A stretch of DNA of 64,000 nucleotides from Antedon mediterranea (GCF_964355755.1 NC_092673.1:14542948-14606947); one strand, 5' to 3'. Shown: positions 1 through 48,194, counted from the stretch's first letter. Notes: generated from the sequence alone by a model not told the origin. Made by a program: numbers and translations.

Positions 1-1200
1 CTGGTCCACGGTAGAAAGACCTGTCATACAAATGATACAAGAATAACGATCCGCATATAGAAGTGACCAATTATGTGGTGGTTAAACAATAGATACAATC
101 CTGAATGCAAAGAAATGTACTCACCTTATCACCGTAGTCATCAAATGTAAATGCATGATTGCTGGAAAGAGCATGGACAATAGCAGCTCCGTCAAACACC
201 TTTACATCAAAATCTGTAGGAGGTTCAGGCTGGCCTTCATTCTCCAAATGCTGTAGCAACTCAGACTTCTTAGTTGGTAGTCGAAGCTTTCCATTTACTG
301 CCAAAGAGGGTGGCCATGGCTGGTTTTCATGCATGAAGAAGTCTCTTAACTTGTTGCTTTGTTTTGGACACTGATTTTGACAGTGGTGTGTTGAACAACG
401 GCAGCTTATTCTGTTTGATGGCTTGTTGAATTGCAACACTTTTGTCGAGAATAACTTCCTTGAAATATTTTTGGTACTGGGTAGTACCTACATCCTGAAT
501 TGTACGAACTGTCACTACTGCACTTTCATTGGCACAATCTCGAGCATCCAAGACCAGAAGTTCTGAACAATTATCGAGGAATGGGTTGCCTGCATTTGAA
601 ATTGTTTCGTGTAGCCTGTTGACCTGAACTTTAAATGTTTAAATGTGTAGACAGTCCTTGTTCTCGTTGCTTAAAGTCATTCGGATCATAAACCATGAAC
701 TGACTCTCGAACTCTGTAATCAGTCTCGCTTGTTCTGGCCCCGCCACCATCCACCTCCTAAACGCTGTTGGATTTTCAGTAAGTCCGACTGCACCCCCAG
801 TTCCTTTTACTAATTCGTTCTGCTCATGAGATTGGTCAATGTCCCTAATGTGGATGGGAATCCATCGGGCATAGTTATTTTTTTTTTTTGTATTTTGTAT
901 TAATATTTTGTCCTCAGTGAGGAAATTCGGATTAGGCCCTCCACGGACCCACGGCAGCTACCAGATTAGGCAATGAGAGTAAAGATAACCTCGAACCCAT
1001 GCCTATCACATGCTAGTCCGATATTACCATTACACCATCACTCTAGGACGATCCATAGCAAAAAACCAGGGTACCAGAGCTTCCAGTGACTCTACATATA
1101 GCGTGAAGTCCCTTGTGCGGAGGGCACGAACGAACATCAGAACAGTTAATTCAAATTCTAGAATAATATCCCAGTACTGAAAGGTTGCATGCATTGGCTG
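1..1200 (-). pseudogene. Degraded Academ-like DNA transposase fragment (interrupted by a SINE)
   Basis: Minus-strand peptides LMFVRALRTRDFTLYVESLEALVPWFFAMDRP / NYARWIPIH / DQSHEQN-ELVKGTGGAVGLTENPTAFRRWMVAGPEQAR / HENQPWPPSLAVNGKLR..KSELL / VFDGAAIVHAL..TFDDY, broken by frameshifts. The motif set is recalled as Academ (transposase plus XPG/PIN-like domain). Confidence 0.6.
878..1043 (-). mobile_element. tRNA-derived SINE
   Basis: Minus strand shows an A-box-like TGGTGTAATGG, a B-box-like GGTTCGAG and an A-rich tail. It splits the Academ reading frame at the DRP/NYARW junction, with TA on both sides. Confidence 0.65.
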
Positions 1201-6742: not shown

Positions 6743-7169
6743 TTAATGTAAGTTAAATTTAATTGTTTTATTGGGATTTTAGATGAAACGATCAAAAGCC
6801 TTTCCTATCAATACAAAATTGAAGAAAGAACGGCGTCACAAACTGAACTGAACTGAACTGAAGCCCTTACAATTGTCTTGAAAGATAGATATTTGAAGGT
6901 AAAAATAATGATTTTATAAATTTCATACAAAATGCTAATATTTTAATATCAACCTCATCCATGCTAAAATCTTTCTTCTCACTCTTTCGCAAGGATATCG
7001 ACGAGGCTAATCCCTCCAGTATTTCAATTTCCCAGATCTTCTCTTTGTTTACGAACGGAAATTTTTCTTTTCTTGGTTCGGGCTTTTGCGTTAGTTCAAA
7101 CAATCCAAACACTGATAGCTGAAGCTGAATGGAAGGACGTAGCAGCCAGCGAACAGTGGATCCGAATTT

Positions 7170-7671
7170 TTTAATTTTTAGCGTCATTTTACTAGCACTT
7201 TATGTAGACATAGGAGCCAGTGGAAGAACTGGGGAAGCTGGAGTGTTTTCAGCTTCTTCTCTAAAAGGATCATTGGATAAGGACAATTTAAATTTTCCAG
7301 GCGCCAAAGATATTAATGGTCCTGTACAGTATCACATAATTGGCGATGATGCATTTCCAATGTCTACTAGAATCATGAAACCTTTTCCTCACAGAAATCT
7401 GAACCATGATAAGCGCATATTTAATTATCGTTTGTCTAGAGCAGGATGCGTGGAAAAAATGCCTTTGGTATACTTGCCAACAGATTCAGAGTACAATTAA
7501 TTTAGTGTTAGGCATTACAGCTGATGAATCGCGACAAGAACCAGTTCTATAGGCCTTGCTCCAAATTGTCAAAAAAATACAAGTCAACAGGCTAAAGTCC
7601 AGAGACAAAATGTAGCTAATTTTTTTACTTCAAATAGGTCCTTGTCATGGCAAGAGAAGGCAATACACTAA
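7170..7671 (+). pseudogene. PIF/Harbinger transposase (HARBI1-like) C-terminal fragment
   Basis: YVDIGASGR..GVF, YHIIGDDAFPMSTRIMKPF, FNYRLSRA motifs, followed by a frameshift. Confidence 0.85.
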
Positions 7672-8190: not shown

Positions 8191-10736
8191 ACCCGCTAAT
8201 CAGTCACATGTGAAGTGTCATCATGAAAAGACATGTAAAGAGGAGGAGTCAAGAGTTTGGCTTCACGCGCGCGTGCCATGCAAAGACACGCATATCATGC
8301 ATGCTTCAATTTTCATCATGCCATTCATTTTTATCCCGCGCGGACACTGTACTTTTTTGTCAAGGACACAACTTTCTTTTTTACTGCTGGGAAGACGTCA
8401 TTGAAGCAATAGCAATTCAAGTAGGCCTATCATTCATTTGTTTCTGCAAGTTAATTTGTTATGGAAAAAAGTCGATCTAATCATCCGTTTATACCTGCAG
8501 ATAGACATTACGATCTCAAACTTTCACGTAATTTTTGGTTTTGAATGTCTGAATAAAGTTCATATGAAAACCATTAATAACATTATAAATATTACTAAAC
8601 TAGGTATCTCTAAATTTGTATATGGTAATATTAACGATATCTCTCAGATTGTATACTTTGAACTAAGAATACGCAAATATCCAAGCGAAATAATGAATAG
8701 AATCTTCAATAAAAGATTACCTGACATTTTTGTTCGATGATATTTGTGTATAGCCTATTTCTTCATAAAACCTTAATTTGGTATGCTTATGTATGTATAC
8801 GCATGTGTATATGTGGGTATAGATATATATGTGTATAAGTGTTTGGTACGTTTGTATGTATGATGTACTTGTATATATATATACACATATGTATGTGTAT
8901 ATGTATATCGACCTATATGTGTTTATGTATGTCTAATTTAAAAAGAAATTATGAATGTAAACAAAGAAAGAAACACATTTTAATTTGTATTTATTTTCAA
9001 GCAAAGCAAGAATTAAAAAGAGAAAAACATTTTTGTTAATTGATAATGTATTTATAAAAAAAAAAAAGTATATTAAAGAAAGGAAATGAATTAATGATGA
9101 CATGTATAAAAATTAATTAAAGATAAAAACGCATCTTAGTTGTATTTATGAAAAAATTGTTCAAAGAGTAAAAAAAACTGTTAATTGATAACGCATTATA
9201 AAATGAAGAAAATGCATTAACGTTAACTTGTGTAAAAATTAATTAAAGATAAAAACGCAGTTAAGTTGTATTTACTTTCAAGAACAAACAAATAACAAAA
9301 TTGCAATTGCATAAATATATATTACAGTTTTTATATGATGTTTGTTTGAAATAAAAGTGGGATGGTCCCACAAAAAAAAAAAAAAAAAGTTAATTTGTTT
9401 AAAATTTACAATGTCGGTACTGGTCCATTGAACAGAAACGAATCAAACCAGCATATTACATGATTCAATGGTTCAGAAAAGACTGACAGATCCAACACAA
9501 CTTGGTTGGTGACCCACCCCAGATAGGTCTAGGCTAAGCATGGATGGAAGGCATCCTGCAAAGGTAGTCGCAATAAATGGTAGGTAAAATCTAAAAAATA
9601 CCCAAGGCCTATATATTTTAGAAATGTTAGGATTGAATTAATAGTTTTATTTGTAACATCTGTAGTTATTGTTATTATGAACTAACGTGAACATTGTTTT
9701 ATATTTTTCCTCCTTGTTTTTAGATATATATTATATATTTTGTTATTGTTAGAATGCTCTCACTAACTTTGATAATGACATTTTTATCTTTTTTTATGTC
9801 TTTTCAGATTTCGTTTGTAAACAATATACTAGTATGACGTCTTCAATGGTACGCAGCAAAATGACGCTTAAGTGCAAAGACACTAGACATAGTGTAAAAC
9901 GAATGGAACAAGAAATTTAAAACTATCATTGTTATTCTCGGGAATTTTAAAGGTTTTTCGCACCGCTTCTTGAGGCAGTTTCTTTATTATACGTATAAAC
10001 TTGAAAATGTCTGTTGTATTCTATATTTACTGCCAACGTGATGTTGAATGTGTATAGTATGTGATGTGACTTCTCTGTGAATATTCTGTGTTGACAGTGT
10101 GATCTTTTTGTGACCACTCTGTGCTGACAGTGTGATTACTCTGTGTTGACTGTGTACTGACAGTCATCACTGTGTGATCTTTTTGTGACCTCTCTGTGTA
10201 GACTGTATGCTAACCCTGTGTTGACAGTATATACACTCTGTGTTGAAACTGTGATGACTATGTGTTCCACTCAGTGCAAATATCACGAATTACTCTACTT
10301 ACCTACTACTACTACAGTACTAATACTACTAGGCATACTACTACTAGTAAATATTTACCTGTTTAAGTATTGAACTTGTTAACTTCCAAAAATGGTAAAC
10401 ATTTAGTGTTATGTTTCCGCGACCTTCCGTACCATTGTGTGTAAATATTTTTGAAAATTTTTGAAAATTTTTGTAGTTTTTAACATTTTTTAAATTTGTA
10501 AAAATTTTTTAAAACTTTTACATTTTTATAATGCAGGCCTATATCAATATTCTGATGTTTTCAGTTAAACTTGTTTTTAACATTTTAAATATATATTTAT
10601 TGTTCTTATAATAAGTGATATTTAATTGTAATTTTGTTTTAATATTTTGATTATTTTGAATTTCAATCTTTCGTTTGATTGCAATAAAGTTCTATTCGTA
10701 TCGTATTCGTAACTTGGCACGATCAACATATTCCGG

Positions 10737-11140
10737 AAGCAGAGTTTTGGGTGAAACTTGGAGGTGACAAGGGAGGCGGGTCATTCAAACAATGATCCAA
10801 ATCACACATGTTGCACACCCAAATTCACTCCAATATACAATTGTCAGTTGTTTTGAGGCAATGTACAATTCTCATAATCTCAATACGGGATTGATTCGTC
10901 TGCTGCCTCAGGTGGATAAACTCCAAAAGTCTGTCATCAGGTAAATATTTTTTATACTTCCCTATTAATATTCATAATTGCCTTAACAAAATTTAATAAA
11001 AAATAGAATGATTTTATTTTTTATTAAAATGGGTTTTTTCCCCCTTATACAACATTACAGAATTCAAGTCAGGAAAGTAGTCAGTCTCTTCATATCAGGT
11101 GACTATAAAATATATAGATATATGGATTGACCAGAGGACA
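10737..11140 (+). pseudogene. Second fragment of the RAG1-like/Chapaev-like transposase family (D1 and D2 exons)
   Basis: FWVKLGGDKGGGSFK..HPNS..CFEA..NL with a GT donor at ~10941, then VSLFISGDY at ~11080-11106. Matches WVKIGGDKGGPSTK..KPNS..VFLFGDY of the full element. Confidence 0.8.
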
Positions 11141-21190: not shown

Positions 21191-22329
21191 TAAAACTATA
21201 AATGTTTATAAGTCACTGTCACTGTGAATGCACTGTTTATTTTAAATACATTTTATTTATCGTAATTTTAGTCAATTCCAAATTGCCCCGTGAAATGGAA
21301 TCCGAAAAGCTTGACGTCCCAGTTATGCTTAAACCACAAAATTCCGATGGCGCGCCTGTCCACGGAATGTGCCCTTATAAAAAGGATAATCCTTTACCAA
21401 AGCGGACAAAACGTAATTCTACATACCAAAATGATGCCATTTACTTTAGATTCCTTAAAAAGAGTGCTATTCTTTCTCTGCAACATCAGTCCAGCAGACC
21501 AACTGACTAACATCAAATTAAATACCCTATTGCACTTGTTCTGCTAAGTACTCACCCACAGTCTGTCTTTCCCAGGAAGGCCTACGCCATCCTAGGAAAA
21601 GTAACTCGCCTTGTAAACAGAAAAGTATAATGTGTGCCACTTATCCATGTGACCTGTGTCAATGTGTACAGCACTGGGTCTCCCACCCCGCACAAACATG
21701 CCATCATCACCCAACTATTCTTAGCAAAGGGTAATTTGAAAAAGTAGGGAAGATACTTACTATTAAAAAAAATTAGTCTTGTGTCCTGTTTTGCATACCA
21801 ATATGATATTGCGAGTGACATGACATATCATGAGTGACACGACATTGTGAAACGACAGGACTTTAACTATACCTCTTACAAGTTGGACAAAGATTTTTCA
21901 TATAATAAGGTACAGGAAAACTATTTGCTTTGAGATCATTTCATTTTTTAAATATACAGCTCTTGAAAACTTCTCTTGAAAAATTGTTATGCTTAAATCG
22001 TCGGTGAGGCAACCATTTTTTAAATTTTAAAGTTCTCATTTATTTTAAATATTACTTCTGAGAATTAAGTATAATGCTAAGGTACTCTTCAAATACAAAT
22101 GGTGTACTATGCTTTGCCATATGAATCTTTTCAAAGACATTTAAAAAATAAACAACTAACCAACCAAGGCATCAACCTTTTCAAAGACATTAAAAAAAAC
22201 AAACAAGGCATGGACCTTTTAAAAGACATTAAAAAAAAAAACAAATAAATCTGAAAAATAATAACTATGGATCTTAGAAGACAAAATTTGGTCAGTTTTA
22301 TTTTAAAACGTTTTTTGAATTTTGTTTTA

Positions 22330-23992
22330 TTTAGAATTTTATGTTATAAGCTCTACAGACTTTTACAAATCCAAAACGTTTATAAACGTTTTGTTTGCTT
22401 GTTTGTACTTTGTAAAACTACCTCCTCTCCGACTCCTGTACATCCCCATGCTTTTTGTTTTGTTTTGGTTGTTCTGCCCACTAAGAGGCAAACCGAAAAG
22501 GCCAATTTGGTTAGACTTTGGAGTTCTCCAATGATTTGACATGGAATTACCTATGGAAATTGGTTATTAACCACTGGACAAATGCATGTAGAGTAGACTC
22601 TACCATTGTTAAAGTTCGTCTACTGGTGTTAGCGTTTGTCTACTGGTGTTAGCGTTTGTCTACTGATGTTATAGGGGATCTACTTCACACTCTTAATAGC
22701 GTTAGGCTAGCACTCTTGGTAGCGTTAGGCTCGCACTCATAATAGTGTTAAGCTTGCACTCTTACTAGTGTTAGATTCACACTCTTAATAGCATTAGGCT
22801 CGCACTCTTACTAGAGTTAGGCTTGCACTCTTTAATAGCAGTAGGCTCGCATTCTTAATAGCGTTAGGCTCGCATTCTTAACAGAGTTAGGCTCGCACTC
22901 TTTAGCAGCTGTAGGCTCGCACTCTTTAGCAGCTGTAGGCTTGTACTTTAGCAGTTGTAGGCTCGCACTCATAATAGCGTTAGGCTCGCACTCTTACTAG
23001 AGTTAGGTTCGCTCTCTTAATAGCCGTAGGCTCGCATTCTTACTAGTGTTAGACTTGCACTCTCATTAGCGTTAGGCTTGCACTCTTTAATAGCAGTAGG
23101 CTCGCATTCATAATAGCGTTAGGCTCGCATTCTTAATAGCGTTAGGCTCACATTCTTAATAGCGTTAGGCTCACACTCTTTAGCAGATGTAGGCTCCCAC
23201 TCTTTAGCAGCTGTAGGCTCCCACTCTTTAGCAGCTGTAGGCTCGCAATTAATAGCAGGTGTAGGCTTGTACTCTTTAGCAGCTCTAGGCTCGCACTCTT
23301 TAGCAGTGATAGGCTGGTACTATGTAGGCTGGTACTTCTGTAGCAGCTGTAGGCTCGTACTTCTCAGCTGCGGTTGGCTTGTACTTCTGAAGCAGCTGTA
23401 GGCTTGTACTTCTTAGCAGCTTCTTCAGCAGATGTAGGCTCGTACTCTTCGGTAGGCTCGCACTCTAATGTAGGCATGTCCTCTATGGTTCGATCGCACT
23501 CTTTGGTAGGATCGCACTCTTCGGTAGGATCGCACTCTTCCGTAGGCACGCACTCTTCCGTAGGCACGCACTCTTCCGTAGGCACGCACTCTTCCATAGG
23601 CACGCACTCTTCCATAGGCTCACACTCTTCAGTAGACTTGCTCTAACATTGGTAGGCGTGCTCTAACATCAGTAGGCGCACTTTAACATCGGTAGGCACA
23701 CTCTAGCAATGGTAGAGTCTACTCTACATGCATAGTCTGGTGGTTAGTATCCAATTTCTGTGGGTATTTTCATGTCAAATTGTTGGAGTACTTCATAGTA
23801 AAATCAAATTGACCTTTTTGGTTTGTCATCTTAGTTGGCAGAACAACCAAAACAACACTTAAGCATGAGGATGTACGGCTCTTGGAGAAGAGGTGGTTTT
23901 TGTTTTGATTGTATTCATTTTTTTTCTCTTTTTTTTTTCAAGTTTATAAACGTTTTGGTTTTTTAAAAGTCTGTAGATCTTTGTATTCTAAA
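22330..23992. repeat. Foldback: ~300-350-bp diverged inverted arms around an 18-21-bp minisatellite
   Basis: ATGCATGTAGAGTAGACTCTACCATTG (~22582) is reverse-complemented at ~23707. Arms 22330-22680 and 23640-23992 align in inverse. The interior consists of TAGGCTCGCACTCTT-type units. Confidence 0.9.
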
Positions 23993-24387
23993 TATTATGT
24001 TTTTATAATTTGTTTACTGGTATGTTGGCATCAGCTAATGTGCATCTATATGCAGATAACATATTTTATAGATTCTGTTATTTATTAGTAAAATATCATA
24101 CAGTAAAATATACTGCAGTATAACAAACCAGGACAAAACATCTGACCATAACGACCCATAATATTGCAATTTGTTACAATAGCTAATTCCATTTATTTAT
24201 ATATGTATTTTGACTATATTGCATTTTCAGTAACGTGTAGTACTGCAACTAGAAAACTTTACCATCTGTGTCTATGGCAGTTTTACAAACACTACTTTTC
24301 TGTCATAACAGCTTTTACTAATAAGATATTGGATCTGTAACAAGACCTGACCCTAAACCCAAGTCACAGCATTTACACTTCCGCTCT

Positions 24388-24560
24388 ACGCCCCGCCCAT
24401 TTTTCTTAATAAAAATACACGGCGCTGATTGGACTGTTCGATGACGTCACGCACACTTCAACTCGTGGCCTTGTGTTAAAGAGTTGCCGATTCGCTAATT
24501 TGTGATGCAAAATAGCATTTCGTAGCGCTTAAATATAAAGAAATTGTCCAATCAGATCTC
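24388..24560 (+). promoter_or_regulatory. Putative transposase promoter
   Basis: GC box CCCCGCCC (24391), inverted CCAAT GATTGG (24427), CRE palindrome TGACGTCA (24442) and CCAATC (24548), just inside the left TIR. A candidate splice donor TTG|GTAAG lies at ~24674. Confidence 0.5.
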
Positions 24561-25813
24561 TTCTTTGATAGAAGATTCGGATTAATCATATATTGAAACC
24601 CCTAGCAGACTATAAAATAATCATTCTGGAAAGTTCGCTAGTTGTCGGCGGGTGTCAGAATCAAAAGTTTTTGGTAAGTGAGGGTTATTTACCTTTATAA
24701 CTCGCTTATTTGAATATAAACATATTATTTTAAAGAGTCAGCTAGCTTCATTATTTATTTAGGATCATGTTGATATATAAAACCGTACTATTAAGCGAAT
24801 TTAAGTTATTTAAATATGAGCGCACGTCTAGGCCCTACAAACGGCTAGCTTGTTAAAACTCAACAAATGATTGTATGACGCGTCGTTGAGCTGATTGTGG
24901 CCGCGTACGTACAACATGCGCTGCGCAAGCCGGCTAGGCCTAAGCTGGTGGTGTGGCAAGCACGGTTGGTGTGGCCTAAAACTGGCATGGCCGAGTAGCT
25001 TTTTTAGGCCTGAACCTACAAAATGGTGCGTAAACAAGGCCTTGTTATTTTGGATAACAAATAATACTTTAAATTTAATACAGGTGGCCCGATATATTAA
25101 AGTTTAAAGAAAATGTTAATATTAATGAATAATAACTAATAGCCTATATTAATTTTTATTAGTCTTCATTAATTGTGGGTTTTTAAAGTAAAGTTTATGT
25201 GATTTAAATTAAGTAGTACCCCCCCCCCCCAAACTTCATCATATATATATTATTTTATTCTCTTTTGCTTGTAAACTCCTATATTAATAATTTATATTTT
25301 ATTCTGCAATGTGCGCTATACATTGATGTTTATAACTTTATACATTTTTATATTGTTTTTATTTATTTATATTTCAGATTAATTGGTGATTCTGTTTACA
25401 GACGTTATATGCATGGCATGACAGTCACTGATCTGGCTACTTACAGAACATTTTACTAACTACTGTATTCATAGGCCAACAACATAGATAAATAAACAAT
25501 TCAGAATATAAACAATTACAAAAAATATACCGTAGATTGACAGGCATTTCATCTAATATTGATTTGTATTATTTTAAAGCAATTATTTTGACTGTTTAGG
25601 CAATAATTTCTTTATATATTTTTACAGTTCTGTATTATTTTATAATTTAACTACAATTATTATTTTCATTTGTACTTATATTAAGTTGTGAATTAAAAAT
25701 CGTATATTACAAATATAATTTTGATTGATTCCTCTTTTTTGTTTATAATTTCTACATTTTCTTTGTAATAAGTGTGACTATTCAATACATTGTTATTTGG
25801 TAAACAATTCATA

Positions 25814-28800
25814 ATGGTTAAAAATACAACATGTAAATCCGGTGGAAAAAAAAAAAAAAAACGTTACCATGGGGGTATGTCTTCTTCCCAAAAGAAAAAA
25901 AGACGACAGGCATATCGGCGTAATATGGATGGAAAATCAACGGAGATGGAAAGTCAACAGTTTCAAGAACCATTGAAATCCCAATTACCCCCAAAACTGC
26001 AGGCAAAAGGACCAGGAACACAATTGGTACCAGAAACATTTCCAGCAGTACCATTACACGAAGCCGATGACATTCACACATTAAAGAATGAAATAATACA
26101 CTTAAAACAACATAATCAAAATCTAACGGATCAGTTGACTGCCATGACCCAGCAAAATGAATGTCTACAGAAGAATGCAAAAGATCAAACAACAAAACAT
26201 AACGCGACACTTTCTGTTTGTCTTGAAAAGGGTGAGGGTCCCCTGGTAAAAAAGGGACTTCTTTTGACTAAGCCATTTGGAAGTGATGAATGATAAAATT
26301 GTACCTGACTATTCCAAATAAAGATAATCCGAGTTCTGTTGCCAGTAGCAGAATTCTGAGGGCCAGGGCAATTGAATTGAAGCAGGTATTCATTCTTCTT
26401 TTTTCCTAAAATGTTTTATTACAGTACGCTGGAAATCGTAATTTCGATTTTAACTAAGATATAAATCATAAGTCTGATTTAAAATTGGAAATAGGCCTAT
26501 GTTACTCTCCTCCTCATGCATCAAGCAAATACGTAAATGCAAATAAAAAAGGAAAACAATAATTGTATGCAAATGAGACTGGTAACAATTTCCGTGAATT
26601 CGAATTGGAAGGCAAAACTTTCTCGATGGATGGTAAAAAATCAATAATAATCCATCCATCACTTTGTTGTGAAATAATATTCAGTTCATAATATGTAAAT
26701 CAAAATGTTTCATTATGCCCAATAATGTCAGGCTCTTGAAGTAATATCATCTAGGGAAGAATCAACAGATGAAGATCTAATTGCAACGCTAATGGTATTT
26801 GTTAAGCAAAATCCTCGTATTTCGTTGGAGGCATTCAAACGGGCTGGAATCAACTATATTAATAGTAAGTCGAAACATAGAAGGATTCGAATTGAAACAT
26901 TCCGGCCGAATTGCATACGTATTTCTTTATACTGTGAAACTATTTGTATATAAACCATATAAAAATAATTGGTAAATTAACGTGAATCTATTTCAAGCAT
27001 GCCCACATGGTTGAAATTACAGAAAAGCATGCGTATTTTGTTATGGTCGGCGCGTGTGTGTAAATGAATTAAATAAAATGAAAACGATTGACAGACACCA
27101 ATAAGCATATCATTTATTTGCAAGAAAGACACTGGTTAAGTAGCTCATACCATGTCTTGTAGAACTCAGCACAAGTGAAACTCTCGATCTGAAGCTATTG
27201 CTGCGTTTACCAATGCAGAAACTACGCCAGCTCCGCACTTTCCTGACAAACCATGGAATACCAGTACTTGCAAGCGATCGAAAACTGTACAAAGAATTGA
27301 AAGGTATTGCCCGAAAAATCGCATTATTAATTGATCCAATTGATGTTATCGCATATACCGTAATCTATCGCTCCACATAACATCACATTCTTTTAATAGG
27401 ACGGCGAAATTTGTCAGACATCAAGGTAGGTGAGATGGTAATGCAAAAAGCCGCAAATGCAAAGGAAAGCAAAATCGCATTTGTTCGTGTGAACAATATC
27501 CACGACTGGATCAAGGAAGTTGTTCACATTCACGAGCAAAACGATAATTTATGGGAACATCAATGTTTCCATAACGAAGCATGGGTTAAAATAGGTGTAA
27601 GTACATTAAATTATCGATTTTTTAAAGTAAAAGAGTATCATACGAAAAAGAAAATCATAAATCTTTTGTTAGGGTTATTCTATCATTTCTGGCGTAACAT
27701 TATTAATGAACGCTTACAATGCCGCACAAAGTTAACGAATTATATACTGGTTGTTCTGCAATAGGGTGATAAAGGCGGTCCGTCAACGAAATTGGTAGCA
27801 CAGATTGTCAATGTAAACAAACCAAACTCGGCAACAACAACAGAAATAATTTCGATGTATAACGCTTTTGACAACTATTCGAACATGAAAGCTATGTTTG
27901 ATGTGTACACTGAACAGTTCGTTCATTTGCAGAATGAGTCAACACTACAGATAGGGGGATGTGAAAAACCAGTCCGAGTATTTCTCTTCGGAGATTATGA
28001 GTGGCTCACGAAGATCCTGGGCCACCTCGGACCGGTATCTACCTTCCCCTGTCTGTGGTGTTATATCCATCGTGACGACTTGTACAGGCCTGCAAATGAA
28101 CGAACCATTCGTCCACATTCACCAATGATAACATCTGAAGATGGCAACTGGTGTGAAAACGCCTTGTGGTATGCCGAAGAAAGAACGCCAGGGCAAATGG
28201 CAACAGACCTCGCAAACTGCAAAGAAGACAAAAGAAATAAAGGAGACAGCAAGAAAAACAGCAAGTTCCATCACTCAATCTTCGAGGTACCAATACTGCC
28301 AATGGGAAGTGACATGGTGCATGTAGTGCCACCAGTACTACATATCATGTTAGGTCTCACGGTTCGTTTTTATAAGCAAATCGAAGACATTGCGAGAACA
28401 GCAGATGGTAGCAAAAATGTTGAAGAGAACGCAACGTTCGTAGAATGGAACATGAAAACAGAAGAGGTTAAGGAAATAGAAGAGAAGACAGAATTATCAA
28501 AAGCCGACTTAAGGTATCAAGTTTCGCTTCTGGAAGGATTCCGTAAGTGTATGAATGGTAATCGTGGAAATGGTCTTTCAGACAAATGTGCCCTAGCCAC
28601 TTGTGCCCTCGCAAGGAATAAAGTAGAAGGAGTAGTGGCGGGGGACATTTCCTGGATTAGATGTGACAGCTGTGATGAGGAGGTAGAGGAGGATAGGAAA
28701 TGGTTTCATGTAGATTGTGTGGGCTTGAAGGGTGAGGACTATGTGAATATGGAATTCCATTGTCCTCAATGTAGAAAGCAGCTTGAAACACCTGCTGATA

Positions 28801-29540
28801 TTATGGAATGGCAAACTGATAGAGTAGAAAGTTGTAAGGAAAGCTTAGAAAAGATGGAAAAGGAGAAGGGTGTAGCAGAGAAGGAATTGGCGGAAGTATA
28901 TGAAGAAGTGAAAGGGATAATTGGTCCAAGAGAAAAGTTGTTAAATTCAATTCTGGATGGCGAGCTGCACGTCAAAAAGCAAGCATACCATTCGCAATGT
29001 TTTGTTGGGAATCACTGCAAGAAGATTTTGCGTAATTCGGTGAGAGTCCTGGCATGCTTAGAGGGACTTCCCGATCACCAGAGGTATGTTGATTTGCTGG
29101 GTAGGTTGGACCATGTTTTTTCTTTCACAAGTGCAAGATTTTTATGCGACAACGAGGTTGAAGATGTTCGCCAAAGCTGTTGGGCATTGGGAATTTTCTT
29201 TTGCAGTATCTTTCCTGAGCAGAACATTCCGCCCAAACTGCACATCTTAATATCTCATGTTCCTGAATGCGCACTTTTGTTTAGAACTTTAGGTCTGTTG
29301 TCCGAACACGGCATCGAGTCACTCCACGCTCAAGTAAATGCAGACGCCAGGCAATATGCCCCAGTTCGCGATAATATTGAAAGGCTAAGGTTAGTATTTA
29401 ACCTACATAGTCAGAGAGCACTTGTTGGCACTGAAGGGTTGAACACGGGGAGAAGAAAGTGCCAATGTGGTGGATGGTTTTCGGCATAAAGTGACGGGGA
29501 AAAATATTGCAAGACATGTGGCGATCTTCAATCTCTGTAA
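25814..29540 (+). CDS. RAG1-core-like DDE transposase with inserted PHD finger (~940 aa, spliced, probably carrying 1-2 lesions)
   Basis: Phase-compatible GT-AG exons 25814-26385 (frame break near 26290), 26732-26864, 27163-27303, 27400-27596 and 27765-29540. D1 in KIGGDKGG (27768), D2 in LFGDYE (27993), E in SEHGIES (29316). PCLWC, LHIMLG, FVGNH and KLHILISHVPE parallel the RAG1 core motifs. In-frame TAA at 29487-29489. Confidence 0.88.
28587..28772 (+). other. PHD finger (C4HC3) coding segment
   Basis: C-x4-C...WIRCDSC...WFHVDC...FHCPQC, in frame within the transposase. Confidence 0.9.
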
Positions 29541-29550
29541 ATAGTAACCT

Positions 29551-29607
29551 GGCCCCGAAACCGCGACATAGAAATACCGGATTGGTGTCCGGCGGGAAAT
29601 AGTTTAC

Positions 29608-29642
<35 letters not shown>

Positions 29643-30478
29643 GTGTATAGAGAGAGAGAGCACAGCTTTTGTTCTTGTAAGCCTGTATAAATAATGGCCC
29701 CGAAACCGCGACTCAGAAATACCGGGTTGGTGTCCGGCGGGGGATAAAAAAAAAATGTATATAGAGAGAAAGCACAGGCTTATTTATGTTAACATTTTCT
29801 ATCGTACGTTATTTGTAATTTTTTTTTGTTCTTCTAGGCCTATATAAATAATGGCCCCGAAACCGCGACTCATAAATACCGGGTTGGTGTCCGGCGGGGG
29901 ATAGTTTTACTATTAAAAAAAAAAAAAAAAAAACACTGTATATAGAGAGGAATCACAGGCCTATTTATGTTAACATTTTGTATCATACGTTATTTGTAAT
30001 TTGTTTTTGTTCTTGTAGGCCTATATTTAATCATGGCCCCGAAACCGCGACTCAGAAATACCGGGTTGGTGTCCGGCGGGGAATAGTTTACCATAAAAAA
30101 AAAACCACTGTATATAGTTTAGAGAGAAAGCACATGCCTATTAGTATTTATGTTAACATTTTGTCTATCATACGTTATTTGTAATTTGTTTTTGTTCTTG
30201 TAGGTCTATATATAAATAATTGTATAAATTGTGTAAATTATATAAAATCATGGCCCCGAAACCGTGACTCAGAAATACCGGGTTGGTGTCCGGCGGGGGA
30301 TAGTTTCACCAAAAAACACTAAATGTATCAATGATTTTTTTTTTTAAAGCATATGCCTGTTTATGTTAAAATAATTTGTATTTAGTTTAGTTGTATTATA
30401 CACTTTATATATACAATAATGGCCTCGAAACCGCGACTCAGAAATACCGGGTTGGTGTCCGGCGGGGGATAGTTTCAC
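29551..30478 (+). repeat. Six spaced copies of a ~55-bp GC-rich motif inside the transposon 3' region
   Basis: GGCCCCGAAACCGCGACTCAGAAATACCGGGTTGGTGTCCGGCGGGG (with few variants) starts at 29551, 29696, 29853, 30035, 30252 and 30421. Confidence 0.95.
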
Positions 30479-31352
30479 CATAAAAAAAACTAAATAAATT
30501 GATATAATAAACAAAATATACCGTTATGTTTATTAAAACAAAGCACGTACCGTACCAAACAAACAATAGTTTGTGTGTATTTTGTTTCAGTCATGATCGG
30601 ATTAGACCACCTACAAAATAGTTATGTTAAAATGTTATGCCCTTACTAAAATCAATCATATCAATTCAGTAAATAAACAAGTACATAAAAAGATATCAAA
30701 TGAAAAGACAGGTAGGTATATTTTCAACTTTATTCAGTTTTTCAACAGTTGCTAGCTGCACATAATATTTAACACATAACAGCACAGTCTGAGCTGTTGA
30801 ATTGTCTGTGCCGCTGGCCGTGTGCATGTCGTTGCAAAACTACCATGTCACAAATGCTAAACGATGGTTTTTGAAACCGCTGTAAAATAATTAAAAAGAC
30901 ATTAAATAACAATATGAAGTAGATATGTACACATTTATATTATTCAAGATATTAACTGTACTTTTCAAAAATTGTTGAAATTAAATTAAATATGTTTAAT
31001 AGCTTTACAAAGTCCGATCAAATTTCATAACATCTACAGCTTCTGAATTGTTGACGCGCGTATCGAACGCGTTTTCGTGTGTAAAAGTTCAGTGCACTTT
31101 GTTTGGTCGCGTAGCAGTGCTATGATTGGCTAGAATTACCTGTCATTTAAGGTCCGCACATACACGCGCCAGGTACGCGCATATACCATACCGCTAGGCG
31201 GCGGTACAATTTATAACACAGTGTAAATGCTGTGAAGTATGCTGGCTTCACATACTGTTTGTATGTGGTCAAAATGTGGCATCTTGACTTGCCACTATCT
31301 TTGTTTGCATGGGCCAATGTGTTGTCAAATCGTGGCAGCTTGGCCTGCTAAA

Positions 31353-31568
31353 TCATTAGGCTAGCTGCACACTCTTGCAGCATTAGGCTAGCTGCACACT
31401 CTTGCAGCATTAGGCTAGCTGCACACTCTTGCAGCATTAGGCTAGCTGCACACTCTTGCAGCATTAGGCTAGCTGGACACTCTTGCAGCATTAGGCTAGC
31501 TGCACACTCTTGCAGCATTAGGCTAGCTGCACACTCCGGCAGCATTAGGCTGGCTGCACACTCCTGTA
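31353..31568. repeat. 27-bp minisatellite, about 8 copies
   Basis: CATTAGGCTAGCTGCACACTCTTGCAG repeated. Confidence 0.95.
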
Positions 31569-31574
31569 GCTTTT

Positions 31575-32885
31575 TGATCATTCAGTGCAGTAATCATTCT
31601 CGTCATTTCCTTATGGTTCACACCAGAAACCTAATAAATTGAAGTCCATAGAATGAATTCAAAATATTAAATCAACTATTACTTTTATTATTTCAATGCT
31701 ATATGTCTTTACCTAATCTTTAAAAATTCTTAAACCTTTGCTTGGTATAGATTGTTGTATAGTGCTGTTATATGCAGCACTAGGTCTTAAAAACAATCTT
31801 TTTTTTTAAACCTGCCCATTCCCATTCTTGGTGCTATAAGCTTCTTGCTTAAATACATTTGTACCAATATTAGGTATACTGTGTTTCCTTTTTCTTTCCT
31901 TTTTAATTGCTATCGACCATTGATCGTAGATTGTTGTATTGTGCTCTTATATGCAGCACTAGGTTTTAAAAACAATCTTTTTTTAAAGCACTGTTCCTTT
32001 TCTTACAACCCGTAAGGCCTAGCTTGTATAGTGTTTATGAATTGCCTTTATGCAATATAATCAGGCATAGTTCTAATTGAAATCTTTAAAAAAATATCTC
32101 CATCAAAAATATCTTTATCAAAGCCATGTACATTTTCAAAATGGCCAATTCTGTGGATGACTTGTATCCCTTTATTTTCAACTATATCCCTGCATCCTTT
32201 TGAACATTCAGTGTAATGATCTCGTCCTTTCCTTATGGTTTAGTCACTGCTCTGTTGACATGACCAGAAATTTTCATTTACCTTGATTATTTCAATGTTG
32301 TTGACTAAACAAAAATCCATACTGTTCTTAAACCTTTACTTGGTATAAGACATAATGGTGATATTGTTTCACCTGTACCAAAACATCACTTTTTCAAAAA
32401 GCAACCATTCTGCATGCTTTAAGAGCTTTGCACACTACCCTCTTGCATCTACACTTTGATTATTTCAATGCTATATGTCTTTACCTAACCTTTAAAGATT
32501 CTTAAACCTTTACTTGGTATAAGACATAATGGTGATATATTGTTTCCCCTGTGCCCAAACGTCACTCCTTTTGTAGTCCTATTACCTAGAACGCTAATAA
32601 CCACTTTTGCATGCTCTAAGAGCTTTGCATCTACATCTTTTTCTCATTTCCATTTTAATGCTATAAGCTTCTTGCTTAAATACACTTGTACCAATATTAG
32701 GTATACTGTGTCTCTTCCTTTTCAATTGCCATCAACCATTGATTGTAGATTGTTGTATATAGTGCTGTTATATGCAGAAAAATAATCTTGTTTTCAAAAC
32801 CTTATTCCTTTTCTTACAAGCAGTAAGACCTAGCTTGTATAGTGTTTATGTATTGCCATTATGCAATATAATTGGGCATAGTTAA
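31575..32885. repeat. Local direct segmental duplications
   Basis: Blocks such as GCTATAAGCTTCTTGCTTAAATACA (31832, 32660) and CCTAGCTTGTATAGTGTTTATG (32018, 32829) recur. Confidence 0.75.
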
Positions 32886-33282
32886 CATTAGGGTTTTAAA
32901 CTTCGTTTTGTTTTCCAAAAGAATTCCAAAATTAAACAGAATCTGCAGTTCACCATTTGGTAAAAATTAAATTTAAATTTACTATTTGCTAATTGTCTTA
33001 TATCTTTTGAGATTTGTACAAAGAGAAACAAATTTAACTACCATTTATTTAGTACATATTATGGAAAATTGAAATAATTTATGACAAGATACTGTACATT
33101 TTTCAATGCCCTTGTGTTTTTTAAATGACATATTGGCAACCAGGGATATTTAGACTGCACCTTACTATGCAGGAATTTAAGTATAGTATAAATGAGTTGT
33201 TTCCTATTACTGATCAGGAGGCAAAGTAGCCTATGTTATATATATCCACATCCAATAAGTTTGAATCATCATAAAGAACAAC

Positions 33283-33875
33283 AACAAGAATATGGTTTGG
33301 TAACATTGTTGGCCAGTTCACAAAATAGCTGTACCAAACACTACAACGTACCAGTTAGAGGAAATGGAATGGTTTCACAGGAAAACCATATATTTTTAAA
33401 TGTTGCACGCAGAGGATAAAAAAGAAAAAACATGAAAACCAGAATATGTGTAAATTAACAACTCTGGTTGATGGGACAAAGAAGAAATACGAACTAATTG
33501 GTATTGACAGAAATCATTGTTGGATGAACTAATTGGTATTGGTAGAAATCATTGTTGATCAGTTCACAAAATAGTTGTACCGGAAACTACAATGTACCAG
33601 TTAGAGGAAATGGAATGGTTTCACAAGAAAACTGTATGCTTTTGAATGTTGCATGCAGAGAGCATAAAAAGAAAGAAAACCTGAAAACCAGACTACTCTG
33701 GTTGATGGGACAAAGAAGAAATACAAACTAATTGGTATTGACAGAAATAGTTTGTTGACCAGTTCACAAAATAGCTGTACCGGAAACTACAATGTACCAG
33801 TTAGAGGAAATGGAATGGGAAAAAAACAAGAAAACAAAAGGCTTCTAAATGTTACACGCAGAGAGCATAAAGAAT
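33283..33875. repeat. Three diverged tandem copies of a ~200-240-bp unit
   Basis: CAGTTCACAAAATAG..GTACCAGTTAGAGGAAATGGAATGG at ~33314, ~33560 and ~33760. Confidence 0.85.
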
Positions 33876-34714
33876 AAAAACTGTCTGTGAAAAACACTGA
33901 ACACAAGTAAATGGATGGTTAAATTTTAAAAGCATCTCATACAATCCTCAAACGATCTTGGCATTTCTTCAAACACGCAACGAGATCTATAATACCATTA
34001 GTAATGGTGAATTGTGGGGTCAATTTGAAATTTTAACAACAATGATATCGCATTTATTTTTTGAAACAAAGTTTTCAATCCAAGCGTGTATTTTTCTAAT
34101 ACATAACCTATAAGAATGTTTCTCATAATATTTAAAAATCTTCAACCATTTGCTATAAAAGGAACCATTTCCTTATATTGGCAACAGCAGTTTATTTAGT
34201 TTATACCTTTATGTATGCAACTAAAGTTGTTTTAAAAAGAGCCTTTTATAAATCCTATTTCTGTATTTTGTTGATAGTAGACCTACCCCCCCATATATTG
34301 AAATTGACAGGTGTAGAAAATCCATAAACTGCCCATTGATTTTTCATATCAGTATGGTACAACAACATTGAAAAAGTATAACAAATATTTATTACAAAAT
34401 ATTGTTTAATTTATGGTTTAAAGTGCTCATCATATCCACTGGTCCATGTTTATTTTCTATTCCTTTTCTCGGAGCCGTACATTTGTACTGTCCATCTCTA
34501 GATAGAGTTGTGTTCCGCCCTTAGTAATTTTCAATAACACGTTGGCTGAACATGAAATTCCCAAAAATTAATTTGTCAATTTCTCTATTCATTTTAAATA
34601 CTTGAATAAGGTCAGCTTTTTTTCTAATATCTTCTAGTGTCAGTAAGTTTAGTTTTTTTATTCTTGTTTCATATGAATTTTCTTTAATCTCTAATATAAT
34701 TGTTGTTGTTCTAC

Positions 34715-47221: not shown

Positions 47222-48194
47222 ATGGCTCAAGCAGGTCCCGCTGTACGGCCATTGCCGGATAGAGCCGAGTTTGAATCCATCAGATATGCCACAATTGCTT
47301 TCCGATTCATGGAAAACATTCCCGCTACTATAGCGTGGTGCAGACGGTATGGTTTGTTACCAGTGACGATGGTTTGTCCTACATGCAATGTTATCTGCCA
47401 AGAAGGGATCGACAACAGATGTAGCGACGGTCGAGTTTTTCGCTGCCCCACCCGGAACTGCAGAAAAACAGTAAGTATTTGAAAGGGAAGTTTTTTTGAG
47501 AAGTCGCACCTCGTCTTGTGGAAGATTATTGCGTTTACTTTTTTGTGGTCTGGTCAACCAACTGTGGACGATCCAGAGGATCTTCATACGAAACGGTAAG
47601 GGGAGAACTTTGAAGAAGATTGGGTCAGATCATACTGTAGTGGACTGGATGCAATTCTGCAGAGACGTTGCTGCAAACTACCTCGTAAACCATCCACAAC
47701 AGCTCGGAGGTCCGGGAATATTGGTTGAGATAGACGAATCTCTTTTTGCAAAAAGGAAAAACCATGCAGGAAGGATTGTACCAGAGCAGTGGATTTTTGG
47801 AGCATATGAACCGGCCACCCATCTTGGTCTACTGGTACCAGTGCCACGAAGAAACGCCGCAACTTTGATTCCGATAATCACGCAGTGGATACGTCCGGGA
47901 TCAATAATTTGGTCAGACATGTGGGCCGCATATGGTCAACTTGCCAATCATGGTTACGTCCATGGGACGGTGAACCATACGAGAAACTTTGTCGATCCTC
48001 AAACGGGAGTTACCACCAATCGGGTGGAATCTATGTGGAAGAGGGCAAAAAGCAAGATGAAGGCTATGCACGGACCAACGAACAGAGCAATGATAGCTGA
48101 TTACCTCGCAGAAATCATGTGGTATCAGCGATTTAGCGATGCGCCTTTTTTTCATTTATGGAATCAGATAGCCACGGAACTCTATCCTCTGTAA
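47222..48194 (+). pseudogene. Merlin (IS1595/ISXO2-like) transposase, disrupted
   Basis: N-terminal CxxC..CxxxxC zinc ribbon, TGA at 47480, KGSFFEKSHL, a frameshift, then VEIDES..RK..GR, WIFG, IWSDMWAAY, HGTVNH..FVDP.TG..TN.VESMW. Confidence 0.92.

Follow-up and report, generated by a model that had tools for sequence, protein, structure and literature searches.

A conserved PHD finger on a predicted helical arm inside the catalytic domain of a Chapaev-type transposase from Antedon mediterranea

Results and discussion

The transposase gene and its PHD finger

We analyzed a stretch of 64,000 nucleotides from Antedon mediterranea (GCF_964355755.1 NC_092673.1:14542948-14606947), hereafter called the window, to which all coordinates refer. 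It contains a transposable element of 6,870 bp (24365-31234), which we assign to the Chapaev type, and the transposase encoded by this element carries a C4HC3 PHD finger in its catalytic domain. We have hardly any doubt that this is a real, conserved PHD finger within a transposase. An open reading frame (ORF) at 27765-29489 (574 aa) is the last of the five exons of an 838-aa NCBI gene model of Antedon mediterranea, with 100% identity to the record across the ORF. All exons are on the plus strand. Exon 1 (25925-26245, aa 1-107) encodes an N-terminal coiled coil and no Chapa domain; exons 2 (26732-26863, aa 108-151), 3 (27165-27305, aa 153-199) and 4 (27402-27596, aa 200-264) follow, the last of which ends at the first RNase H strand, and after a GT-AG intron (27597-27764) exon 5 (27765-29489, aa 265-838) encodes the DDE core, as recognized from its motifs and its homology to RAG1. 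The catalytic residues are encoded at 27768 (D), 27993 (D) and 29304 (E), and C(2)C, LH and H(4)H motifs at 28050-28061, 28338-28343 and 29241-29258, respectively. In a preliminary description made from the sequence alone, the distance from the second aspartate to the glutamate was given as 440 residues; the spacing is indeed long, but we measured 437 residues. In RAG1 the distance is about 254 residues (D708 to E962).

The PHD finger (28587-28772, plus strand, aa 539-600) accounts for part of this additional length. Its Cys1/Cys2 pair is at 28587-28604, WIRCDSC at 28653-28673, WFHVDC at 28701-28718 and FHCPQC at 28755-28772, and charged stretches lie on either side (28443-28511 and 28827-28910), so that all motifs quoted in the preliminary description were located in one open frame between 28443 and 28910. 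Two points go beyond that description, namely the four-residue spacing between Cys1 and Cys2 and the lysine (Lys538) immediately before Cys1, where a third aromatic residue of the cage is missing. When the 574-aa ORF was shuffled 20,000 times, the PHD-like Cys/His pattern arose four times, and never together with both tryptophans, so that a chance motif was rejected; across all six frames of the window the pattern appears a single time. In a 70-row alignment whose rows were selected for spanning this region, each zinc ligand is conserved in 64-68 of the 66-68 rows that cover it, and the ligands are kept in 96-100% of 56 proteins that have at least seven of them. Removal of the finger by alternative splicing is not supported: a donor-like GTAAGT at 28543, another candidate at 28549 and an acceptor-like site at 28774 would join only out of frame, and the codons concerned are conserved in homologues. 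A contig of run X5, one of the public sequencing runs used below and by our guess an RNA run, continues across the introns and was therefore uninformative on splicing.

In an AlphaFold model of the transposase (mean predicted local distance difference test (pLDDT) 87.2; 84-97 by block across the insert), the finger is flanked by an outgoing helix of 41 residues (aa 487-527, 28431-28553, plus strand) and a returning helix of 43 residues (aa 607-649, 28791-28919, plus strand), about 62 and 64 A long, within the insertion in the catalytic domain. The arrangement proposed earlier, a PHD finger between two charged helices, is thus borne out by the model. The two helices probably pair in antiparallel fashion, because their lengths match and coiled-coil matches span residues 482-650; the hydrophobic period is 3.5 residues in the returning helix and 3.0 in the outgoing one, with only one clean heptad. 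The returning side is nearly constant in length, 69-78 residues from the last PHD cysteine to the GN motif of the core among the 56 proteins (standard deviation 2.3), and the outgoing side ranges from 66 to 199 residues.

The arm is followed by a helix that aligns with the one preceding the GN motif in ProtoRAG, and the GN motif is aligned at position 460 of a 618-residue mouse RAG1 chain, which corresponds to residue 850 if that chain ends at 1008. Counting back from this motif, the helix into which the arm leads would be the equivalent of RAG1 helix O, with the arm placed in loop N-O, and the arm would emerge beside the channel for flank and target DNA, from the loop and helix that form its lining in RAG1. 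When the RAG2 PHD docks on RAG1, it opens loop N-O together with helix O (aa 816-832; PMC11844651); by the ProtoRAG alignment, the arm would be inserted at this same place. PHD-less Chapaev proteins have an insert with a median of 123 residues at this position and thus, on sequence comparison, the arm is apparently older than the finger. In the profile alignment, the counterpart of the RAG1 'gatekeeper' R848 falls at aa 676-679 (28998-29009); it is Cys in this protein and Met in ProtoRAG, as expected for a transposase.

Ends, target site and state of this copy

The element is bounded by perfect terminal inverted repeats (TIRs) of 15 bp, of which the left (24365-24379, plus strand) starts with CAC and the right (31220-31234, minus strand) ends with GTG. 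The target-site duplication (TSD) is 4 bp, AAGT at 24361-24364 and at 31235-31238, with a different fifth base on the two sides. We compared contigs of public sequencing runs with positions 23500-31500. In runs X1 and X2, which are one sample and possibly the sample of the window itself, a joint from 24360 to 31235 skips about 6.9 kb, with four letters that fit either side and a short side of 26 letters; a joint from 24362 to 31238 in run X6, from another organism, also skips about 6.9 kb. These empty sites may be paralogous, because the flanks of the insertion are themselves repeated. Other contigs have joints such as 24652 to 27122 and 27763 to 29173 that do not follow the GT-AG rule and are internally deleted derivatives of the element.

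The present copy is probably no longer autonomous. The gene ends at a premature stop (29487-29489), beyond which the frame runs on to 29540 (29487-29540, plus strand) and includes the final Cys pair of a zinc motif that homologues have at their C-termini; this pair is clipped by the stop, and the position is a sense codon in contigs of run X6. Near the 5' end, an in-frame ATG and a basic run resembling a nuclear localization signal lie upstream of exon 1, at 25814. A probable continuation of exon 1 in another frame (26311-26385, plus strand), skipped by the gene model, was seen in a three-frame translation; it resembles the Amphiura homologue by eye and was not reported by tblastn, so that the assignment is weak. 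A frameshift lesion may lie near 26290, as judged by eye only.

The first part of the element (24365-25000) is rich in CpG (observed/expected 1.28, against 0.76 in the window) and is likely to be its promoter. A GC-rich unit of about 52 bp is present six times in the 3' subterminal region (29550-30475, plus strand), as found by repeat family analysis; an Rfam scan of 22000-34000 gave no match. The contig depth of these units is far above that of the rest of the element and their copy number varies in run X6; thus the unit must also occur elsewhere in these genomes. The units may serve the transposase as binding sites or may represent a satellite carried along by the element.

Assignment to the Chapaev superfamily

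The transposase matched DUF1280 with 84.7 bits (cut-off 25) and an E value of 9e-24, and DUF1280 is equated with Chapaev transposases in PMC3985635. PMC4079192 lists as hallmarks of Chapaev CAC/GTG ends, a TSD of 3-4 bp, and three motifs, C(2)C, LH and H(4)H; the element has these features, with its perfect TIRs, its 4-bp TSD, the DDE residues and the three motifs. The Chapa domain was not found: neither RAG1_imp_bd nor zf-AD was matched in the transposase by Pfam, and a pattern count restricted to proteins with long N-termini gave 0/24 among PHD-bearing and 5/22 among PHD-less proteins. The Chapa zinc finger is common but is not counted among the hallmarks in PMC4079192, and its loss has been inferred in some clades of the wider superfamily (PMC4411706). 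Because no Chapa was found in the PHD-bearing proteins, we filed them as a Chapa-less branch of Chapaev. The element is therefore a cut-and-paste transposon of the Chapaev type, in the CMC/CMCT group, without Chapa, on the grounds of the 4-bp TSD and DUF1280, along with the CAC...GTG ends. A PHD-less Chapaev protein with Chapa and RING is also present in Antedon (P0160), and it shares 28% identity with the present protein over 334 aligned columns; the latter differs in lacking Chapa and RING, in having a coiled coil at the N-terminus instead, and in carrying the PHD finger at the tip of its helical insert.

Membership in RAG1L/Transib was rejected on the 4-bp TSD and DUF1280, although the predicted fold is that of RAG1. 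Transibs with shorter TSDs have been reported (bioRxiv 2026.08.26.747230), and thus the TSD alone is not decisive. Our trees compare the protein with database relatives. A sequence search with the single ORF gave no RAG1 chain among the 20 matches listed, and family profiles matched ProtoRAG and RAG1 with E values of 3e-11 and 4e-12. The model superimposes on RAG1 with Z 26.6 (root-mean-square deviation (rmsd) 4.3 over 471 residues), on HzTransib with Z 24.7 (408 residues) and on the P element transposase with Z 14.2, which points to a RAG1-type fold and to an enzyme that works like RAG1/Transib. The relation to RAG1 implied in the preliminary description thus holds for the predicted fold and does not hold for the family. 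Transib, like the Antedon element, has a single RAG1-like transposase, which has no extra domains according to PMC4411706, and its canonical TSD is 5 bp rather than 4 bp. The RAG1-RAG2 and ProtoRAG/RAGL systems have the same transposase fold (Z 24-27) and likewise have a PHD near RAG1 helix O, with Trp two residues before the His and Met or Trp three before Cys3. They differ from the Antedon element in that the latter has a single protein, no Kelch subunit, a 4-bp instead of a 5-bp TSD, and a PHD in cis with C4HC3 ligands.

Distribution of the finger among relatives

At E 0.001, a representative search yielded 1,151 relatives, of which 150 were listed; together with a first search this gave 166 proteins, 115 of them with at least 400 aa, and 102 were retained as covering both halves of the core (13 dropped). 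The finger is present in 52 of the 102 and absent from 50, proportions that are not the frequency in the family because the query carries the finger. Absence from other copies, which the preliminary description had held out as a possible objection, was thus not found at the level of the clade. Pfam PHD was matched by 29 of 43 members, and RAG2_PHD was not among the 25 Pfam families listed, out of 115, for these 43 members. A search with the insert only (aa 470-670) matched solely the protein itself among 1,069 candidates, the word index being too strict for the insert, and an alignment-based scan for the locus gave no conserved seed.

In a FastTree phylogeny made without the insert columns, 40 PHD-less proteins, including members with Chapa and RING, formed one branch (support 99); the other side, with weak support (50), had 60 rows, comprising all 52 proteins with the finger and eight without it. 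The presence of the finger on this tree requires six changes, at least four of them forced. IQ-TREE with 42 proteins separated 15 PHD-bearing proteins and one without a finger from 26 PHD-less proteins (100/100). A single gain followed by several losses is the likely history on these sequences, both trees being unrooted and so leaving the direction of change unfixed. Carriers of the finger include Antedon, Amphiura filiformis, Clytia hemisphaerica and Caenorhabditis species, one C. angaria member having the automatic UniProt name 'Zinc finger PHD-type domain-containing protein'. By these sequences, the finger is a trait of a clade that extends across echinoderms, cnidarians and nematodes.

One could suppose that the finger is a captured passenger without a role in transposition, or that the gene is a domesticated host gene, and the repeated losses of the finger and the premature stop in this copy would fit such a view. 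However, all ligands and a nearly fixed arm length have been kept across echinoderm, cnidarian and nematode elements, which argues against a passenger, and the intact TIRs, the TSD, the empty sites and the internally deleted derivatives mark a transposon. Domestication was rejected on these grounds, and we consider the passenger or domesticated-gene explanation largely refuted and scarcely credible.

Several relatives had unusual architectures. P0019 and P0042 have neither arm nor finger, with an insert as short as that of RAG1, and are nested among PHD-bearing proteins; they are natural minimal Chapaev enzymes. P0075 has kept the arm and lost the internal finger, and a different PHD is present near its N-terminus (aa 113-162, Pfam E 6e-5), by relocation, new capture or fusion in the gene model. 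P0140, a PHD-bearing protein, has an N-terminal Ulp1/SUMO-protease domain (aa 2-113, E 1e-6), a partner of PHD in Ginger1 and Mutator transposases. PHD fingers are known from these other superfamilies: in Ginger1 the PHD is C-terminal, beside Ulp1 (PMC2836005), an add-on and not an insert in the catalytic domain, and a Mutator/Rehavkus transposase likewise carries a C-terminal PHD (PMC6446971). In Rehavkus the 3' TIR is also preceded by a minisatellite, comparable to the six-copy unit here.

Is the finger a reader of methylated H3K4?

The preliminary description noted a Trp two residues before the His and an aromatic residue before I-x-C; these are Trp577 (28701) and Trp561 (28653), the latter three residues before Cys3. 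The top sequence matches of the finger were ING, PHF2/PHF8, KDM7, TAF3, BPTF, CXXC1 and the third PHD of KDM5, and the nearest solved PHDs are readers of methylated lysine 4 of histone H3 (H3K4), a specificity given in part by entry titles. A deeper profile also matched fingers of KMT2D, DPF and KAT6A, not all of which are known to read trimethylated H3K4 (H3K4me3). A model of the finger alone (pLDDT 72.5) was compared by fold with the candidates proposed by Foldseek; it best matched the AL1 PHD-H3K4me3 structure (Z 5.1, rmsd 2.2, 50 residues), and all 50 matches listed were PHD-containing chains. ESM Atlas placed the finger with generic PHD clusters at 0.80 or below, which we use as a lead only. 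The RAG2 PHD was matched by fold at Z 4.6-4.7 over 61-66 residues with 15-18% identity, against 28-35% for most canonical PHDs, and no RAG2 chain was among the sequence matches listed. Convergence of the finger with the RAG2 PHD is likely, and less than certain because the RAG2 PHD ties with canonical PHDs in the fold comparison.

The tryptophans are the modal residues in 59% and 55% of the 56 proteins, against a median of 27% for insert columns other than Cys and His. Both are present in 23 of the 52 fingers, which include 16 of the 17 in the clade of this protein (the other has Y/W) and seven elsewhere, among them that of Clytia; a pattern count on another selection of proteins gave 32/62. 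KDM5A PHD3 binds with only two tryptophans, at 18 and 28 (PMC9814790), and in our sequence match (query 24-68, KDM5A PHD3 chain 13-51) Trp561 and Trp577 fall on these residues if six extra residues are allowed between them. The missing third aromatic residue thus does not exclude binding. KDM5A PHD3 and the Alfin-like fingers have two tryptophans at the same positions (AL1 shows W-x-x-C and W-x-H against a relative), whereas the loops are longer here, and those fingers come from chromatin proteins of the host for which binding has been measured. In invertebrate RAG2L fingers both cage positions are Trp, and the sea urchin RAG2L PHD prefers dimethylated K4 (bioRxiv 2023.08.20.553239). On the conserved residues, the finger of the two-Trp clade would quite probably bind methylated H3K4; the safe prediction of the ligand is methylated K4, of whatever degree.

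We propose that the arm, with helices of about 60 A and rooted in the zinc/helical insertion of the catalytic domain, would hold the PHD at its tip, where the two tryptophans would bind H3 methylated at lysine 4; the finger would tether the complex of transposase and transposon ends to nucleosomes of open chromatin next to the target DNA, and insertion sites would be biased as a result. Such reading and tethering we judge to be close to an even call, and the step from H3K4me reading to the choice of target may hold with a confidence just short of that. Several observations weigh against the proposal. One or both tryptophans are absent from 29 of the 52 fingers, and both have been lost from the three finger-bearing Caenorhabditis members; the cage lacks its third aromatic residue (Lys538, in a variable column; the position is aromatic in ING and BPTF), and Arg563 stands where relatives mostly have Gln or Glu. 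The PHD scores are low (Foldseek E 0.02 or worse; Pfam PHD 20.3 bits with a cut-off of 24), as is usual in fold comparisons of small domains. Trimethylation is not assured as the mark, given the K4me2 preference of sea urchin RAG2L. Two sister proteins lack both arm and finger and three have the arm only; thus the finger is dispensable for some lineages. The sole insertion site examined, which lies within a repeat and has flanks with CpG observed/expected of 0.63 and 0.20, is unlike a promoter. Another repeat, next to the insertion site (22348-23981), is foldback-like, with long imperfect inverted arms around tandem arrays of 18 to 24 bp, and these arrays resemble a 27-bp array at 31300-31596.

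The unequal conservation of ligands and cage also bears on another explanation, in which the finger is a structural zinc module, or one that binds protein or DNA, that caps the arm, links the two protomers as a substitute for RAG2 or makes contact with target DNA, with histone reading absent or secondary. The zinc ligands are far better kept than the tryptophans, each of which remains in less than 60% of the 56 proteins, and the 40-protein Chapa/RING group has the arm without the finger. Furthermore, RAG helix O makes trans contacts with RAG2 that close the complex, and no RAG2-like ORF was seen in the element: the four frames of at least 120 aa within 24365-31234 are all transposase exons or antisense to them, a search that a gene of many small exons would escape. 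However, after one Gly the two tryptophans are the best-conserved residues of the finger other than ligands, and they co-occur in several separate branches. The finger is also acidic (13 D/E, 6 K/R), which suits a basic peptide better than DNA. We regard a mainly structural or binding module as a somewhat unlikely, though serious, alternative to histone reading.

The finger may also bind methylated H3K4 as a gate rather than a guide, either by folding into the target-DNA channel and holding the enzyme shut until a histone tail releases it, in the manner of the RAG2 PHD within the RAG signal-end complex, or by sensing the chromatin of the donor before excision. In RAG, the flank site next to loop N-O and helix O is taken up by the RAG2 PHD, and transposition increases 22-fold with a long H3K4me3 peptide (PMC11844651). 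The Chapaev finger shares its acidic character with the RAG2 PHD and hinge, and its point of attachment would be the same. On the other hand, two long continuous helices hold the finger about 60 A from its root in the model, which would hinder folding back, and autoinhibition would be less expected in a selfish element. We consider gating unlikely and prefer histone reading that tethers the complex near its target.

Other mobile-element traces in the window

Fragments of other mobile elements are also present. An ISXO2/IS1595-like (Merlin-type) transposase fragment lies at 47475-48194 (plus strand, Pfam E 2e-20) and a Harbinger-type DDE_Tnp_4 fragment at 7129-7500 (plus strand, E 2e-5). A 138-aa frame at 71-487 (minus strand) resembles a fragment of a mobile-element protein and has no Pfam match. 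At 10712-10789 (plus strand), a weak tblastn match (E 0.003) to an Amphiura Chapaev protein, in the region of its first RNase H strand, is possibly an old fragment.

Conclusions

In the literature searched, no PHD within a RAG1-type catalytic domain was described, nor was a PHD mentioned for Chapaev; the first accounts of Chapaev in Repbase Reports, or Yuan and Wessler 2011, may mention the finger. 'PHD' does not occur in the accessible part of PMC4079192, in PMC12730594 or in bioRxiv 2026.08.26.747230, and in the accessible text of PMC4411706 it refers only to RAG2, with no match in five supplements. The finger is thus real and conserved, and it marks a variant, apparently undescribed, within a known superfamily; its function is predicted, and its link to RAG biology can be tested. 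We tentatively suggest, at somewhat less than even confidence, that a branch of Chapaev solved chromatin targeting in one polypeptide, with a reader of methylated H3K4 on an arm of fixed length at the loop of the RAG2 PHD, as a single-protein counterpart of RAG1 plus the RAG2 PHD. Because invertebrate RAG2L fingers have the same Trp/Trp pair, descent of the RAG2 PHD from such a transposase-borne finger can be imagined, and we consider it very unlikely.

Little is known of the way in which cut-and-paste transposons select chromatin, and whether the RAG2 PHD recruits, stimulates or blocks transposition is central to the taming of V(D)J recombination. The Chapaev relatives offer a comparison series, with arm and intact cage, arm and degenerate finger, arm only, or neither, which would show whether reading of a histone mark predates RAG2 or arose apart from it. 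Furthermore, the loop that carries the arm seems to tolerate insertions and may suit the fusion of targeting domains to a RAG-type transposase.

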